Positions 49-31,767 of a DNA stretch of 31,767 nt are shown here, piece by piece (position 1 is the first letter of the stretch; each line of letters starts with the position of its first letter). The notes beneath the pieces are model-generated. The model was not told where the DNA came from. It saw nothing but the letters and a program-made list of their open reading frames with translations, and did no database searches. The translations under genes were made by a program, and so were the position numbers. The DNA comes from a virus. The stretch is from the IMG/VR virus record IMGVR_UViG_3300020473_000086. The stretch is one strand, 5' to 3'.

Positions 49-1036
49 TGTTGTGGTAGGATTACAGTTCGGAGATGAAGGTAAAGGTAAGGTTGCTCAT
101 CAATTAGCAAGAAATGGGAACTATACTCACGTGGTCAGGTTCAACGGGGGCTGTAATGCTGGGCACACCATTTATCATGAAGGTAAAAAATTTGTTACCC
201 ACCATATTCCAGCTGGCGTTTTTTATGGAATAAGATCTGTGATTGGCCCGGGCTGTGTAGTCAATCCAGGTAAATTATTCAAAGAGATAGAAGAACTTGA
301 AGAAGGTGGTATAAAAGTTAGAGAGCATTTAAGGATTGCCGCTAATGCTCACGTAATTACTGATTTTCATATTGCAGAAGATAGCCGTGATGAAGATATC
401 GGCACAACAAAAACAGGAAATGGTCCGGCTTATCGAGATAAATACGCCCGCAAAGGTGTGATGGCAATTGAAATTCCGGAATTTGATGATATGATAGTTG
501 ATATGTATACAGAGCTACATGAAAACCCAGACTATGATAATATAGAAATCCTTTGTGAGGGTGCCCAGGGGTTTGGGCTAGATATTGATTGGGGAGAATA
601 TCCGTTTGTCACATCGTCACACTGTACCACTGCTGGCGTTATTGCCAATGGTATTCCCCATAATGCCATTAGGGACGTTTGGGGCGTGGCCAAAGTATAT
701 GAAACATATGTTGGAGCCAAAGACTTTGAAGATAATGCAGATCCTGTATTTGAAGAAATAAGAGAAGTAGGGTCAGAGTTTGGTGCAACCACAGGTCGAC
801 CTAGACAAATTTCGTGGATGCAAATGGATCTTTTAAAAAGATCAATAAATGTGAATGGCGCAAATAAGATCGTTTTTAATAAAGCTGATATATTAGAAAA
901 GGTCGGTGCTTGGTGCATATATGATGGGATGGATGCACATGATTTTAAGAGCTCTGAAGATATGGAACAATGGATCCTAAGCGAAATTGATGAAAAAGAT
1001 GTTGTAATATTTTCTAGAAGTCCTAGCGAAATTTAG
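38..1036 (+). CDS. purA: Adenylosuccinate synthetase (short, 332 aa)
   Basis: GLQFGDEGKGK P-loop, RFNGGCNAGHT, GTTKTGNGPAY, EGAQG, YPFVTSS and GATTGRPR motifs. Confidence 0.95.
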   Translation: MIADVVVGLQFGDEGKGKVAHQLARNGNYTHVVRFNGGCNAGHTIYHEGKKFVTHHIPAGVFYGIRSVIGPGCVVNPGKLFKEIEELEEGGIKVREHLRIAANAHVITDFHIAEDSRDEDIGTTKTGNGPAYRDKYARKGVMAIEIPEFDDMIVDMYTELHENPDYDNIEILCEGAQGFGLDIDWGEYPFVTSSHCTTAGVIANGIPHNAIRDVWGVAKVYETYVGAKDFEDNADPVFEEIREVGSEFGATTGRPRQISWMQMDLLKRSINVNGANKIVFNKADILEKVGAWCIYDGMDAHDFKSSEDMEQWILSEIDEKDVVIFSRSPSEI

Positions 1037-24760: not shown

Positions 24761-24789
24761 GTGCAATAGTCCAGATAGTGTGGTATAAT
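24761..24789 (+). promoter_or_regulatory. Promoter, GTGCAA family
   Basis: GTGCAA-17 nt-TATAAT, TGG extended -10. Confidence 0.85.
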
Positions 24790-24818: not shown

Positions 24819-25004
24819 ATGCAATTCGAAACAACACGTCGAATGTTCGACATCAACTACCGGGAAGCTGGTAGCAACAGTTACTACACTGCAGTCCATA
24901 CACGGGCTGACGGATCGCGAGAAGTATACACCCGGAAGTCACTCAGTTCTCTGAAGTCTTTCCTCCGGGAAAAGAATGCGGACTTCGTAGTTCGTAGCCG
25001 ATAA
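24819..25004 (+). CDS. Small hypothetical protein
   Basis: Follows promoter and SD aaagga. Confidence 0.65.
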   Translation: MQFETTRRMFDINYREAGSNSYYTAVHTRADGSREVYTRKSLSSLKSFLREKNADFVVRSR

Positions 25005-25040
25005 GAAAAAGTTAATAGAATCAACCACTTAGGGGATATC

Positions 25041-25160
25041 ATGAATCGTATTAAAAATTATTTTATTAATCAAGCATCACGGCCAGTCACACATTTGGTG
25101 GCTGACTTTGTTATTGTCGGCGGTGCTGTAGCGTGTGGGTACTTCGGTTTTATCCACTAA
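25041..25160 (+). CDS. 39-aa membrane peptide (not in ORF track)
   Basis: SD agggga; hydrophobic C-terminal half. Confidence 0.45.
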   Translation: MNRIKNYFINQASRPVTHLVADFVIVGGAVACGYFGFIH

Positions 25161-25165
25161 ACAAT

Positions 25166-25429
25166 CCATGGGTGCACTGCTCACTCTACCGGAAACGGAA
25201 ATGTCTGGAGCCGAAAGGCTAGGCACCATGGGTTCTACATTAGAGCCATTAAATATAGGGATTCAGCTGGCTGGCTTTGAAAGTCAGACCCTCATCAAAC
25301 CCAACGCGCACTGATCACCGCAACGGGAGGGAAGACAGAGAGTTTGAATCTGTTGCTCGGATAAAATATGCGGGCGTTCGGTGAGTCCCTATTTTTAATC
25401 GCTCTAAAAACGTAATAAAATTAATGGCT
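25166..25429 (+). ncRNA. Candidate multi-helix structured RNA
   Basis: Two GAAA-capped hairpins, 9-bp and 11-bp long-range stems with G-U pairs, no ORF. Confidence 0.55.
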
Positions 25430-25441
25430 TAGGATGCTACA

Positions 25442-25645
25442 ATGTCAAACACATTCAAACATAAGGGATTCATTATTGAATTTGTGGAGACAGAGCGTCG
25501 GTATAAGTACACCAGGACTGGTTACTGGACTGCGCGTCGCAGCTCGAATGGGAAGGTTGTGCTGCGCGGCAAAGACCTAGGTCCCATCCTAAAAGCTATC
25601 AAGGTTGAAGAGAAGCTGGCTGTGATACGGTCGGCGCGTAACTAA
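25442..25645 (+). CDS. Small basic hypothetical protein
   Basis: ORF following RNA element. Confidence 0.6.
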   Translation: MSNTFKHKGFIIEFVETERRYKYTRTGYWTARRSSNGKVVLRGKDLGPILKAIKVEEKLAVIRSARN

Positions 25646-25743
25646 ATGTCAAAGAGCGGGGAAGCTATATTAATAGTAACCCCGGCTGGAAGGTTTTACA
25701 AAAGAAGAATAAACTCTTGCGCGGCTAAAAATAAAATCTTTAC

Positions 25744-27600: not shown

Positions 27601-27971
27601 GGAATCACACGTTACCCTCCCTGTCCTTGGCGAGTGGGGCGTTAGGACGCCCGGGCGAGACCAAGTTGCGCTCGGCCTGCCTCCCGGTAGAAAACCAGGT
27701 GCGTTCTCCGGCCTCCGGCCCAAAAAAAGTGAGTGAATCGCCGTCCCGGCGCAATAAAGTGAAAAGTCCCTGTGCCCCGAGCGTCCCGCTTAATTGTTTT
27801 TTTTACTAAAAGGCCTGTCATTAATACAATTATATTGCATATTTAAAGAATGTAAGTGGGATTGTTTGGTCTGTGCCCACTATAAAATAAAATGGGATCG
27901 GCATATTAGCAACTAGTTCAGTTTATGCTGCCGGTCTCATGCAAAGTGATGATAATAAAGGCGGTTAAACA

Positions 27972-28352
27972 ATGAAGATCACCAAGCGACAACTGCGAAG
28001 AATCATTCGTGAAGCAGTAATTAACGAGGCGCTGCCACCGCATCTTAAAAAACACTTCAATAAAGACGGTTCTGCTAAAGTTCACAACCCAATGGGTTAC
28101 GAAATAAAGGACGTTACTCCAGCAGGTTACGGTCCGGATGAAGTTGACAGCTATGATCTCGGTCGAGAAGATTCGCTTGCTGGCATTCGACCTCAACTAC
28201 CTGATGAAGAATACATGCGGGGATACAACGAGGCACAGGTGGATGCTGGTTTACCGAAAATGCAGGCACCTAGTGATAGTGGTCGAGGTAAGAAACTTGA
28301 TCCGAGCAAGCTCAAAGGCGCGTTCGCCGGCAAATACTATGGGAGTAGATAA
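27972..28352 (+). CDS. MKITKRQLRRIIRE-leader protein 1
   Basis: Shared N-terminal leader. Confidence 0.8.
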   Translation: MKITKRQLRRIIREAVINEALPPHLKKHFNKDGSAKVHNPMGYEIKDVTPAGYGPDEVDSYDLGREDSLAGIRPQLPDEEYMRGYNEAQVDAGLPKMQAPSDSGRGKKLDPSKLKGAFAGKYYGSR

Positions 28353-28616
28353 ATGAAAATTACCAAACGACAACTTCGAAGAATTATCAGGGAAGAGAAA
28401 GCTAGGCTTGTTTTAGAAATGAATCCCGACGGCTCAATATCTGATGATGAGGTAGACCTCGAAGACGAGCTGACCCAAGAGGTAGTTCGTGATCTAGAAG
28501 GGCTTATTGCAAAAGTGCATACTCAAGCAGAGCGAATAGGTGGAGACTTCAGGTCACCCGGCATTAAATCGAGAGTTTTCAAGGCCATGGCTATGGTTTT
28601 ACACGGAGCAAGATAA
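28353..28616 (+). CDS. Leader protein 2
   Basis: MKITKRQLRRIIREEKARLVLE. Confidence 0.8.
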   Translation: MKITKRQLRRIIREEKARLVLEMNPDGSISDDEVDLEDELTQEVVRDLEGLIAKVHTQAERIGGDFRSPGIKSRVFKAMAMVLHGAR

Positions 28617-28617
28617 T

Positions 28618-28899
28618 ATGAAAATCACAAAACGACAATTAAGAAGAATTATCAGGGAAGAGAAAAATCGTATCCTTCGCGAAGAGACAGGCTATCAGGC
28701 ATCAGTTGGCGGAGTTGATATCCCAGAAATGCTGGATGTTGCATACGAGCCAATCCAGGAAGAGATGGACCAGATGCAGTTATCTGATCTTATGGAGTTC
28801 AAAGCAGCCGTAATGCAAGGTGGTTTTGACTTGACACAAAGAATCCTGAGAGACATTGAGGCGCTCATTCAGTTTGCTCGAGAAGACGAAGGAATGTAG
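28618..28899 (+). CDS. Leader protein 3
   Basis: Start re-assigned to MKITKRQLRRIIREEKNRILRE. Confidence 0.8.
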   Translation: MKITKRQLRRIIREEKNRILREETGYQASVGGVDIPEMLDVAYEPIQEEMDQMQLSDLMEFKAAVMQGGFDLTQRILRDIEALIQFAREDEGM

Positions 28900-28908
28900 G
28901 ATATACCA

Positions 28909-29757
28909 TTGCAGCTTTTACGTGAATATATCAGGTGTTTGCTTATTGAATCTGTCGAGCTTGACGATCGGTTAATTAACCCCAACTATCCTGCCGAGGA
29001 AGTAAGGGTTGCCATCGCTCAGGCAGGACTAACACCGGAAGATATCAGCATGCTTAATCAGTATTTCGAGCTCGATAGCGTCGGCGACCCTGAGATGACT
29101 AGGGATGCTTTGAAAGCATTCGGTGGAGATTACAGTAAAATAGAACCAACACGGGAGGTTGGGTACAAACTGATGGGAGCTCTTAAACCTTTAAAGCAAA
29201 AGGGTTATAGAAGCAAGTATTACAAAAAGCAAAGAGAATCCTTTCCCGATATATCTCCTGCGGAATTTGACAGTATAGAGCGATTTAAGGAAGCTGTCAT
29301 GATCGGAGGCCAGTCGGCACTTAACACTGCGAATGATCCTATTTTAAAAAAGTTAGGATATACAGATTATGTGCAGCGTTTGGTTAAGCTTTCTGGAGAT
29401 TGGATCAGTTTCTTTAAGAAGTTTCCTGAAGTATTCGAACTTGAAGTTACTAGACGTAATAAGCATATTGAAGAGTTTAAATTGATGGGTGCAATTCCTC
29501 ATTATGAGAAACTTCAGGACGATTACGATGTAATACGCGAATTAGAGAAGAAATTGATTAAAGAAACGCCATGGGCTATTAAGGGCGGGGCCTTTTCAAG
29601 TGGGCCGGATCAACTTGTTAGACTCTTGATAAATGGCTTTCAGACAGAGCTTACCGATATGGTCATACCGTGGGAAGACGGCGCTGGGATAGAGATTGGG
29701 AAAAAGACAGGATTGCCAGAATCCGTTGCAAAAATAACAAAATGGTATAACAGTTAG
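28909..29757 (+). CDS. 282-aa protein with variant leader MQLLREYIRCLLIE
   Basis: TTG start; amphipathic leader ending LIE. Confidence 0.7.
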   Translation: MQLLREYIRCLLIESVELDDRLINPNYPAEEVRVAIAQAGLTPEDISMLNQYFELDSVGDPEMTRDALKAFGGDYSKIEPTREVGYKLMGALKPLKQKGYRSKYYKKQRESFPDISPAEFDSIERFKEAVMIGGQSALNTANDPILKKLGYTDYVQRLVKLSGDWISFFKKFPEVFELEVTRRNKHIEEFKLMGAIPHYEKLQDDYDVIRELEKKLIKETPWAIKGGAFSSGPDQLVRLLINGFQTELTDMVIPWEDGAGIEIGKKTGLPESVAKITKWYNS

Positions 29758-29765
29758 GATAAACA

Positions 29766-30134
29766 ATGAAAATCGCAAAAAGACAACTAAGAAGAATTAT
29801 CAGAGAAACAGTAAGAGAAAAGCTTCAGCCTAGTGATCAGGCGCCGGCAAACTTTTCTAGAAAGTTTTATGAAGATGGTACCCTTACAACTCCAGAAGAC
29901 TTTAAATCATTACATCCTGGTGATAACTTATCTTTAAATGGAAGACCTATAGTCGTCATAGGAGTCAGTCCGATGACTGGCGAGGTTGACTATGTAGATC
30001 GGGGCAAAGCGACCCGAAAGCACTTTGATTATAGAATGGCACTGGTTGATGAGCCCGGAGAAATGCCCGAATACGACGTGGTTTATCTCGGCCCGGGTGA
30101 ACCACCACAAAACACGAGGTTACCAAGAAGATGA
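29766..30134 (+). CDS. Leader protein 4
   Basis: MKIAKRQLRRIIRETVRE. Confidence 0.8.
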   Translation: MKIAKRQLRRIIRETVREKLQPSDQAPANFSRKFYEDGTLTTPEDFKSLHPGDNLSLNGRPIVVIGVSPMTGEVDYVDRGKATRKHFDYRMALVDEPGEMPEYDVVYLGPGEPPQNTRLPRR

Positions 30135-30394
30135 AAATTACAAAAAGACAATTGAGAAGAATCATTAGAGAAGAGAGAGCTAGGCTCTTAAGAGAAGAAG
30201 ACCCATTCGATGCTGATAGAAGAGCGTGGAAAGGTGAACCCGATATGGATGTAGTAGAGGCTGCAGACGAACTTTACACTGCGCTTAAAACCCTGACAAG
30301 GCTGGGCGTTGAAGCGCTGAGCGATGATGAGCTTTATATAATGACAGGTGAGCCAGAGGGCATTACTGTTAAGGTACTAAGGAGAGGTAGATAA
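30131..30394 (+). CDS. Leader protein 5
   Basis: MKITKRQLRRIIREERARLLRE. Confidence 0.8.
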   Translation: MKITKRQLRRIIREERARLLREEDPFDADRRAWKGEPDMDVVEAADELYTALKTLTRLGVEALSDDELYIMTGEPEGITVKVLRRGR

Positions 30395-30395
30395 G

Positions 30396-30722
30396 ATGAA
30401 AATCACAAAGAGACAACTTAGAAGAATTATTAGAGAAGAAAAACAAAGGCTTTCAAGAAGAAAATTAAATGAGACTCATTCGATGGATGCCGTCAAGGAG
30501 TTAGATGATATTAGGATCGCTATTGATGATATCGCTGTCGGGGTATATCAAAATGATCCACACTTAGCCCAAGACTTAGAGATGCAAGTGGAAAGATTAG
30601 AGATTCTTCATGATAAGCTTAAAAGATCGTTAGCTCAAGGTGGGAGAACACCTACTGAAGAAGAGAGCGGTGTACCCGATTCTAAGAGATCAGTTATTCA
30701 CAACAGAAGACCAGATTGGTAG
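30396..30722 (+). CDS. Leader protein 6
   Basis: MKITKRQLRRIIREEKQRLSRRKLNE. Confidence 0.8.
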   Translation: MKITKRQLRRIIREEKQRLSRRKLNETHSMDAVKELDDIRIAIDDIAVGVYQNDPHLAQDLEMQVERLEILHDKLKRSLAQGGRTPTEEESGVPDSKRSVIHNRRPDW

Positions 30723-30727
30723 GAATT

Positions 30728-30952
30728 ATGAAAATCACAAAGAGACAATTGAGAAGAATCATCAAAGAAGAAAAAACCAAGCTTATGAACGAAATGGCAT
30801 CGGATGATAGCTACGGGGATGAATATATGGAAGCGATGATGAACCTATATATGGACCTCGAAGCTGCCTTCACAAAGGCAAAAAGAGCTGGAATCGATTA
30901 CACTGATTTAGATACAGCTTTGGATGATGCCAAGCAGTCGACTGGATATTAA
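30728..30952 (+). CDS. Leader protein 7
   Basis: Start re-assigned to MKITKRQLRRIIKEEKTKLMNE. Confidence 0.8.
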   Translation: MKITKRQLRRIIKEEKTKLMNEMASDDSYGDEYMEAMMNLYMDLEAAFTKAKRAGIDYTDLDTALDDAKQSTGY

Positions 30953-30994
30953 TTCAAAAATCGAAAATGTAACAATTGATAAAAGGAGAAAACA

Positions 30995-31090
30995 ATGAAG
31001 AAATTATTACATAGACTAACCAAGTTATTTAACGAGCACTGCTGCTGTTGTTGTGGGTGTTGTACATGCGCAGATTGTGGATGTAAGTGA
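30995..31090 (+). CDS. 31-aa Cys-rich peptide, metallothionein-like (not in ORF track)
   Basis: Strong SD aaaaggag; MKKLLHRLTKLFNEHCCCCCGCCTCADCGCK. Confidence 0.7.
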   Translation: MKKLLHRLTKLFNEHCCCCCGCCTCADCGCK

Positions 31091-31217
31091 AGATAATAGA
31101 GTGGCACAAAGATAAACTTGATAGCCTCATATTTCGATGGGGTTTATCAAGTTATCAATTGGCGTGGATATCGTTTATCAAAGGATTAATCATAGGATAT
31201 ATAATAGGGTTATACAC

Positions 31218-31523
31218 ATGAAAATCACAAAGAAACAACTTAAAAGAATTATTCGAGAAGAGAAAGCTAGGCTAGTGAAAGAAGCCTGGGGTGGCGCGCT
31301 AGGTCTTCCTGGTACCATTGACGCCCGTGCACGAGGTGAGCATCAGAAGGCTGCGCCTCCTGAATCCGAAGGTAGGAACATGGTGCAATGGAAAAGTAAC
31401 GGCGACATTAAAAAGTATACTCAGAATCTAGAGTATATCATTGAGTATGGTGGTATGGATTTTTCCGATGCTGAAATTAAAAAAGCGGTGGCTGAAGCCA
31501 TGGCGAACCTTGGGATCAAATAA
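31218..31523 (+). CDS. Leader protein 8
   Basis: Start re-assigned to MKITKKQLKRIIREEKARLVKE. Confidence 0.8.
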   Translation: MKITKKQLKRIIREEKARLVKEAWGGALGLPGTIDARARGEHQKAAPPESEGRNMVQWKSNGDIKKYTQNLEYIIEYGGMDFSDAEIKKAVAEAMANLGIK

Positions 31524-31744
31524 TGAAAATTACAAAAAGACAACTAAGAAGAATTATCCGTGAAGAGAAGGCAAGGCTCGTTAAAGAGCAAAGGGGCGGC
31601 CGAAGAGAGGGCCTTGATATTCTCGACGAACTGAGAATGATGGGAATTCCTGATAGTGTGCTAGTTGACTATCTTGTTGGTAACTGGATGTCAGGCGATG
31701 ATGCATTTCAGTCTATGCTCGATTTCAAGGATAGCGAGGTTTAA
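31523..31744 (+). CDS. Leader protein 9
   Basis: MKITKRQLRRIIREEKARLVKE. Confidence 0.8.
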   Translation: MKITKRQLRRIIREEKARLVKEQRGGRREGLDILDELRMMGIPDSVLVDYLVGNWMSGDDAFQSMLDFKDSEV

Positions 31745-31767
31745 ATGAAAATTACAAAAAGACAACT
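31745..31767 (+). CDS. Leader protein 10 (partial, runs off window)
   Basis: ATG AAA ATT ACA AAA AGA CAA = MKITKRQ. Confidence 0.75.

Follow-up and report, generated by a model that had tools for sequence, protein, structure and literature searches.

What occupies the gene-free stretch at 25161-25441 on the + strand of IMGVR_UViG_3300020473_000086, a viral DNA of 31,767 nt (hereafter the window, by which we mean the whole of the DNA examined)? A preliminary description had read it as one multi-domain RNA of about 265 nt, ending just before the SD of the ORF that begins at 25442, and had taken it for a novel ncRNA, a ribozyme or a large cis-regulator. Comparison with homologues leads to a different picture: the stretch consists of two adjacent, independently inherited structured-RNA cassettes on the + strand, which we call D1 and D2 (domains 1 and 2; Table 1). 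The window is phage-like in its gene content, with homologues of a PurZ-type adenylosuccinate synthetase, UvdE, a DUF2201/VWA protein and a MoxR-type AAA ATPase, together with dozens of small + strand ORFs. Its DNA is present in marine metagenomes from nine studies, and a blastn search of 25100-25500 against 50,697 phage records gave no match to a cultured phage. Since a 50.6-kb sister contig was rated only 14% complete by CheckV, a genome of jumbo size is suggested, and with it an uncultured large marine phage as the source. As separate observations on the window, the 332-aa synthetase homologue (38-1036) matches the phage PurZ family (phrog_1211, E 4e-72), a hint at possible synthesis of 2-aminoadenine (Z) DNA by the phage, and a 45-60 nt similarity that recurs about every 300 nt, both at 27970-31767 and in the related contig L006 (3100-6300), is the shared N-terminal leader of a gene array.

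Homologues were collected by three routes. A 19-nt string from domain 1 retrieved one IMG/VR contig, a homologue rather than identical DNA; a gapped pattern across both D1 junction strands retrieved 14 marine metagenome contigs; and two more were reached through homologues of neighbouring proteins, without any RNA pattern (L058, which carries D1, and L052, which carries D2). This gave one viral and 16 marine metagenome contigs in total, with 12 distinct D1 sequences and eight distinct D2 sequences, which all belong to a single phage lineage. When IMG/VR was scanned with four patterns for D1 and one for the D2 core, only one sister contig was recovered, the 14 other matches to the D2 pattern being due to chance, and two patterns run against 185,579 prokaryote species genomes yielded no match. 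When IMG/VR was searched with the protein of the 67-aa ORF that follows the RNA, no match was obtained, while the AAA ATPase led to one distant contig, which is without the RNA.

The stretch as a whole behaves as RNA and not as coding sequence. On the + strand, 25160-25441 folds with -91.4 kcal/mol (z -3.88), which none of 200 shuffles equalled; the z-score of its minus strand is -2.79. The preliminary description had seen no ORF here, and no conserved ORF crosses the stretch: the crossing frames vary in frame and length among homologues, disrupted as they are by hairpin indels of 2-4 nt. A coding reading was rejected on the same grounds, the frames across D1 not being the same between homologues. 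Nor does the stretch belong to a known RNA class. A covariance-model scan of the window against Rfam 15 (4227 models) returned no family at gathering thresholds, and relaxing the threshold to E<10 for 24900-25700 produced only SNORD11, at 20 bits on the minus strand, and nothing credible; the same scan of eight homologues (L002, L004, L007, L008, L011, L014, L016 and L052) found only tRNAs elsewhere in the contigs. Likewise, ARAGORN found no tRNA or tmRNA gene in the window, and these scans bear out the earlier judgement that the RNA is not a tRNA, a tmRNA or an RNase P. A literature search for the D1 core strings matched no paper. Taken together with the comparative evidence set out below, it is well supported that D1 and D2 are real structured-RNA families whose shapes have been kept by evolution, and that they are new, a word that here covers the RNA family only; so far they come from one lineage of uncultured marine phages.

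Table 1. Features of the locus, in window coordinates
Feature	Positions	Strand	Remarks
Nearest upstream promoter-like site (GTGCAA, 17 nt, TATAAT with TG)	24761-24789	+	Read from the sequence; not listed by the consensus scan
39-aa membrane-peptide ORF	25041-25160	+	Stop 5 nt before D1; homologue downstream of the RNA in L005 and L012
D1 module, 66-nt three-way junction	25166-25231	+	Model R1, 93.6 bits; one copy per contig in 12 distinct homologues
D1 P1, 5' strand	25166-25175	+	Pairs with 25223-25231; G25172 bulged; 7 of 9 pairs change on both sides
D1 J1/2, 13-nt pyrimidine-rich single strand, ACUGCUCACUCUA	25176-25188	+	Identical in 12 of 12 sequences
D1 P2 hairpin, 3 bp and GAAA loop	25189-25198	+	Third pair G-C or U-A
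D1 J2/3, 10-nt invariant strand, AAAUGUCUGG	25199-25208	+	From the alignment; same in L058
D1 P3 hairpin, 4 bp and GAAA loop	25209-25220	+	Second pair G-C, G-U or A-U
D1 P1, 3' strand	25223-25231	+	Pairs with 25166-25175
D2 module, 166 nt, long closing helix and four inner hairpins	25241-25406	+	Model R2, 185.9 bits
D2 closing helix, 5' strand	25241-25269	+	Pairs with 25379-25406, about 27 pairs; 16 of 24 outer pairs change on both sides
D2 hairpin A, variable loop	25271-25287	+	From the alignment
D2 hairpin B, conserved core: three short helices, internal loops, apical loop 25309-25318	25289-25331	+	Middle pair of inner helix G-C, C-G or U-A
D2 hairpin C, near-invariant 9-nt loop	25334-25354	+	3 of 6 pairs compensated
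D2 hairpin D, variable	25355-25375	+	4 of 5 pairs compensated
D2 closing helix, 3' strand	25379-25406	+	Pairs with 25241-25269
A-rich gene leader (P motif, core 25413-25434) with the SD of ORF 25442	25407-25441	+	Outside the RNA fold
67-aa ORF	25442-25645	+	Replaced by unrelated genes in other contigs

The helices that had been named beforehand were recovered at 25166-75/25223-31 (with one bulged G), 25189-98, 25209-20, 25255-65/25382-92, 25271-87 and 25334-54, and the collected homologues upheld a structured RNA through covariation in both domains: 9 pairs in D1 and 27 of 52 in D2 were changed on both sides, levels that none of 500 shuffles reached (for D2, on any measure).

In D1, 92% of cells are paired across the 12 sequences, as against 24-48% in slid controls, and all three stems covary. 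The closing stem P1 (9-10 bp) occurs in four quite different sequences with pairing kept in all of them, the stems of P2 and P3 range from 3 to 4 bp and from 4 to 7 bp among homologues, and the loops vary freely (GAAA, GACA, GCAA, UUAA, AAUA, UUCU); G-U and A-C combinations stand at 4:0. The junction strands (13, 10 and 2 nt, the third being AG) are identical in all 12 distinct sequences, a count to be read with the search in mind, as 22 of the approximately 25 invariant positions were fixed by the search pattern (12 of the 13 of J1/2, and the J2/3 strand). L058, which was found via a protein and has the same junction, is the sole pattern-independent check, and is close to L006. A further GUCU/AGGC pairing is invariant, and hence shows no covariation; it competes with the two inner P1 pairs. 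Folded alone, D1 is unremarkable in energy (z -1.82, not significant) and the minimum-free-energy (MFE) structure gets its interior wrong, so that the case for D1 rests on comparative evidence. The complement of its 13-nt strand has 9 matches in the window, no excess over chance (7.7 expected). A fixed junction combined with free stems reads as the signature of a putative catalytic or ligand- or protein-binding core.

One homologue bears on where such an RNA might end. In L007, an otherwise unrelated contig, the closing stem of D1 is directly followed by six U and then by a sigma-70-like promoter (TTGACT, 17 nt, TATATT; L007 293-376, minus strand, and downstream). D1 may therefore end a transcription unit there, and an RNA that ends a transcript would fit a stand-alone molecule better than a leader.

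The evidence for D2 comes from both comparison and energy. Its eight sequences are 49-99% identical and share one common structure, in which 96.8% of cells are paired, as against 37-45% in slid controls; alone, it folds far better than its shuffles (z -5.21), and its MFE structure is the comparative one. G-U outnumbers A-C by 43:1, which identifies the fold as that of a + strand RNA and excludes both a DNA cruciform and a minus-strand RNA, and on the minus strand the R2 model stays below 40 bits in every homologue. The closing helix (24+3 pairs, about 25 bp, nearly perfect) carries compensatory changes along its whole length. Its conserved outer closure is formed by 25241-46/25400-06 plus 25249-54/25393-99, and in the window this outer helix differs from every homologue on both strands and still pairs. 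The preliminary description had offered two alternative partners for a TAGAG motif, suggesting a pseudoknot or switch: the one at 25402-06 is in fact the conserved outer closure, the one at 25184-88 has no support among homologues, and the pseudoknot or switch itself is not conserved. The 9-bp helix 25244-52/25421-29, proposed at the same time as the closure of D2, does exist in the window but is missing from all homologues, and its 3' half is part of the gene leader motif.

Within D2, the apical loop of hairpin B holds the palindrome UGAUCA (25312-17) in seven of the eight sequences, the divergent L002 having CCGG instead. This loop could form a kissing dimer; alternatively, it could pair with AUCA of the internal loop, an option absent in L002. 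The loop of hairpin C reads like a T-loop (UUGAA), and may be one.

Are these two domains of one obligate molecule? Their distribution shows that each is inherited independently of the other, and the idea of one obligate RNA of about 265 nt is largely refuted by it. D2 directly follows D1 in six contig types, six types carry D1 but no D2 (L005/L010, L006/L013, L007, L014, L016 and L058), and L052 has D2 but no D1; most of the syntenic relatives (L031-L045, L049-L056) lack both. There is one copy of each module per contig, even in the 31.7-kb window and the 50.6-kb contig. Since close relatives do without either, neither module is essential. In L016, whose flanks are 80-82% identical to the window, D1 is present and is followed, at the place of D2, by a different 76-nt pseudoknot-like fold. 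In L033 and L034 (4580-4697), the outer helix and flanks of D2 surround an unrelated interior of about 60 nt, and D1 is missing; the frame of helix and flanks thus seems able to carry different cargo. The leader runs uninterrupted in L005, and by comparison D2 has the look of an element inserted precisely into it.

The genes on both sides of the modules also change between contigs. The window, L002, L011, L012 and L006 each have another gene downstream, and D1 is followed by no fewer than five unrelated genes or RNA modules. Because neighbours differ in this way, the large cis-regulator that had been envisaged is unlikely as a regulator of ORF 25442. The 67-aa protein of this ORF has no match in Pfam or PHROG. 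The arrangement of the contigs thus makes the region a shuffled array of small genes and small RNA folds, and two of its cassettes, D1 and D2, chance to stand side by side in the window.

Other folds were seen in the same contigs. The one at the place of D2 in L016, the window's closest relative, is a third module (L016 about 753-828, minus strand; also in L004 after D2, and in L011, L012 and L052 upstream) that reads as an H-type pseudoknot, GGGC..GCCGG..GCCC..CCGGU; one stem covaries (GCCGG/CCGGU versus UCCGG/CCGGA) and a GC-rich hairpin often comes after it. L052 has a 570-nt ORF-free stretch (1123-1691) with several other small folds and D2 at its end; the fold energy of the region upstream of D2 is not significant there (z -0.5). 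A segment of about 130 nt in L052 resembles L007 373-500 (minus strand), just upstream of D1, a likeness that suggests a further shared module.

The modules are set among recurring gene-expression elements. The P leader, about 32 nt long and ending in a Shine-Dalgarno (SD) sequence, has a second copy at 25013-25034, before the 39-aa ORF. In related contigs it has 26 copies, on the gene strand only, before different genes and with or without an RNA module; it also precedes some non-coding folds. It could be a shared translation-initiation region, a site for a regulatory protein or a phage promoter, and we take it to resemble T7/T3-type promoters loosely, with the spacing off by about 2 nt. Given the promoter-like site upstream (Table 1), D1 and D2 would belong to a polycistronic unit. 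In four contigs (L005, L011, L012 and L052) the strand of the modules also bears tRNA genes, 0.5-1.3 kb upstream of them; none was found in the window, L003, L006 or L013-15. Those genes (Arg, Met, Thr, Leu, Lys) are located at L005 8346-9124, L011 2655-2803, L012 1624-2244 and L052 1-67.

Is the sequence present in RNA? Two RNA-library contigs from different studies, of 270 nt (from an rRNA-depleted metatranscriptome) and 207 nt (oligo-dT), cover 25263-25399 at 95-99% identity, and both run on into the closing helix and leader of sister variants. This shows the presence of the sequence in RNA libraries, which carried-over DNA could also explain. Two other RNA runs gave no coverage; in these two it is confined to 25263-25399 and includes nothing of the flanking genes, a gap that we do not read as a low level of mRNA: an assembled contig can break off at a cassette border where strains from one sample differ, and the flanks of such strains may also be less than 88% alike.

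What might two such cassettes do? We give a probability of about 40% to the reading in which they are autonomous RNA cassettes in a polycistronic, early-type transcript, with D2 released by RNase III and the D1 junction acting as a partner-binding or catalytic element. On this account, the modules would be transcribed together with early genes and then cut out of the mRNA, D2 by RNase III within its duplex of about 25 bp. Once released, they would function on their own as stable RNAs, much as do the orphan small RNAs encoded in phage tRNA regions; the invariant single-stranded junction of D1 would be a contact surface for a protein, an RNA or a small ligand, and the conserved core of D2 would present its self-complementary loop and its T-loop-like loop for tertiary or intermolecular contacts. 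RNase III is proposed because some 25 consecutive pairs of D2 are kept via compensatory change, including those in the window's divergent outer part. Against this, the long duplex could serve only to insulate the fold. Much of the arrangement could also be explained in cis, with the D2 helix as an RNase III processing and stability site that uncouples cistrons in the manner of the R sites of T7 early mRNA, D1 as a put- or nut-like element that modifies RNA polymerase for read-through or as a protective fold, and no functional free RNA at all. The position of the modules is in keeping with such a role: intercistronic and without exception in sense orientation, they come a few nt after a stop codon and 250-450 nt downstream of the promoter-like site; D1 is about the size of a put RNA, and L033 keeps the outer helix and flanks of D2 despite its different interior. 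Yet a mere cleavage site would have no need of the conserved core and the 11 compensated inner pairs of the D2 interior, while D1 is without similarity to the HK022 early region, is missing from the same operon in syntenic relatives, and in L007 stands directly before a U run. We consider a purely cis-acting role somewhat unlikely, though more probable than the other rivals.

The remaining explanations differ in which part of the evidence they leave unaccounted for. That D1 is a new class of small self-cleaving ribozyme, cutting the polycistronic transcript, would suit its anatomy (about 66 nt, a three-way junction with approximately 25 fixed nucleotides, covarying stems and free loops) and its habits, for it is neighbour-independent, always sense and patchy among relatives, as are phage hammerheads and twisters. 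The same anatomy would, however, suit an aptamer or a protein-binding site, the models of known ribozymes give no match with the threshold raised to E 10, and the hammerhead core (CUGANGA ... GAAA) is missing from the junction strands. We consider self-cleavage quite improbable. A single obligate RNA of some 265 nt, or a riboswitch-like cis-regulator of ORF 25442 with its outer helix reaching the SD region, would account for the six contig types in which D2 directly follows D1 and for the presence of the 9-bp helix in the window, and the 270-nt RNA-library contig could span both modules. Modularity nonetheless largely refutes this reading: besides the occurrence of each module alone and the changing downstream gene, the 3' half of the 9-bp helix belongs to a leader that is also found where there is no RNA module, no conserved expression platform was seen, and the downstream genes form no consistent class. 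We therefore regard it as very improbable. As to a platform, P1 is followed by a U run in L007 alone, and no conserved alternative pairing with the SD was found. Scarcely credible, finally, is an element that works as DNA, be it an origin, a recombination site, a cruciform or an insertion of MITE type flanked by terminal inverted repeats. It would draw on the apparent insertion of D2 into the leader of L005, on the long inverted repeat formed by the ends of D2, the outer part of which is conserved in most copies, and on the presence of D2 in some close relatives and its absence from others. But the 43 G-U against a single A-C mean that the fold works only as + strand RNA, the stem is kept by compensation and not by sequence, including in the window's outer part, and no further copy exists in the 31.7 or 50.6 kb.

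Returning to autonomous cassettes, a bolder version of that account would place D1 at the heart of a small functional RNA of a new class, be it a ribozyme that cleaves itself or an aptamer that binds a ligand, working as a free-standing cassette rather than a gene switch, for example as an RNA decoy or sponge among early host-takeover genes, with D2 as a second new RNA that pairs with itself via its palindromic loop. We think this version unlikely; if either RNA were a ribozyme, an aptamer or a decoy, it would represent a phage accessory function overlooked by protein-centred annotation. Of the two modules, D1 is the more attractive, as 66 nt with about 25 fixed junction nucleotides. More broadly, it appears that large marine phages harbour a set of small folded RNAs, which are reshuffled in the same way as gene cassettes.

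How, then, do the modules compare with known systems? MITEs have many dispersed copies with conserved terminal repeats, whereas D2 has one copy per contig and ends kept by compensation. The small ribozymes (hammerhead, twister, pistol, hatchet, HDV-like) resemble D1 in size, in a junction-centred core, in a phage intergenic setting and in patchy occurrence, but the D1 core sequences are different: the hammerhead core of CUGANGA, GAAA and UH is absent from the junction strands, which read ACUGCUCACUCUA, AAAUGUCUGG and AG, and no model matches; catalysis by D1 is a candidate property only. D1 is also similar to the put RNA of phage HK022, which confers processive antitermination by making RNA polymerase resistant to terminators in cis: it is about 70 nt long, multi-stemmed and sense, and in an early operon it comes behind one or more initial genes. 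It differs in that it is a closed three-way junction where put is two tandem hairpins, and in being dispensable in relatives. The R1 model, run with filters off against HK022 24000-36000, which holds the put sites, gave a best score of 8 bits (E about 1).

RNase III processing offers the nearest parallel to the helix of D2. RNase III cuts rRNA precursor stems and the R sites of T7 early mRNA. Its substrates have about 20 bp or more of near-continuous duplex, and the D2 helix, with its 24+3 pairs and 97% of cells paired in eight sequences, has as much. Like those stems, the near-perfect duplex of D2 encloses an RNA and lies between cistrons; unlike D2, the T7 sites are plain hairpins that hold no conserved cargo of several hairpins, and cleavage of D2 is a prediction. 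In their context, the modules recall rnaC and rnaD of phage T4 (species 1 and 2), orphan structured RNAs, small and stable, which are released from longer transcripts and lie in sense orientation in a region of small ORFs and tRNA genes. Four of the related contigs have tRNA genes upstream of the modules, and the window has none. The modules here are optional and are flanked by genes for proteins. Neither nhmmer profiles of D1 and D2 nor blastn found a match in the T4 rnaD-rnaC region, and the D1 model had no match in the annotated rnaC-rnaD span of the T4 locus.

A further comparison is with GOLLD and ROOL, the large 'ornate' RNAs that phages and prophages carry, often in the neighbourhood of tRNAs and with an elaborate fold. 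They assemble via loop-loop contacts (bioRxiv 10.1101/2024.12.08.627333). D2 shares with these the retention of a self-complementary apical loop, which makes its multimerisation a candidate only; D1 and D2 differ from them in being much smaller (66 and 166 nt), modular and without an Rfam match. By analogy of context, then, the closest counterparts of D1 and D2 are the stable RNAs of T4 and the ornate RNAs GOLLD and ROOL and, for the helix of D2, the RNase III processing stem.
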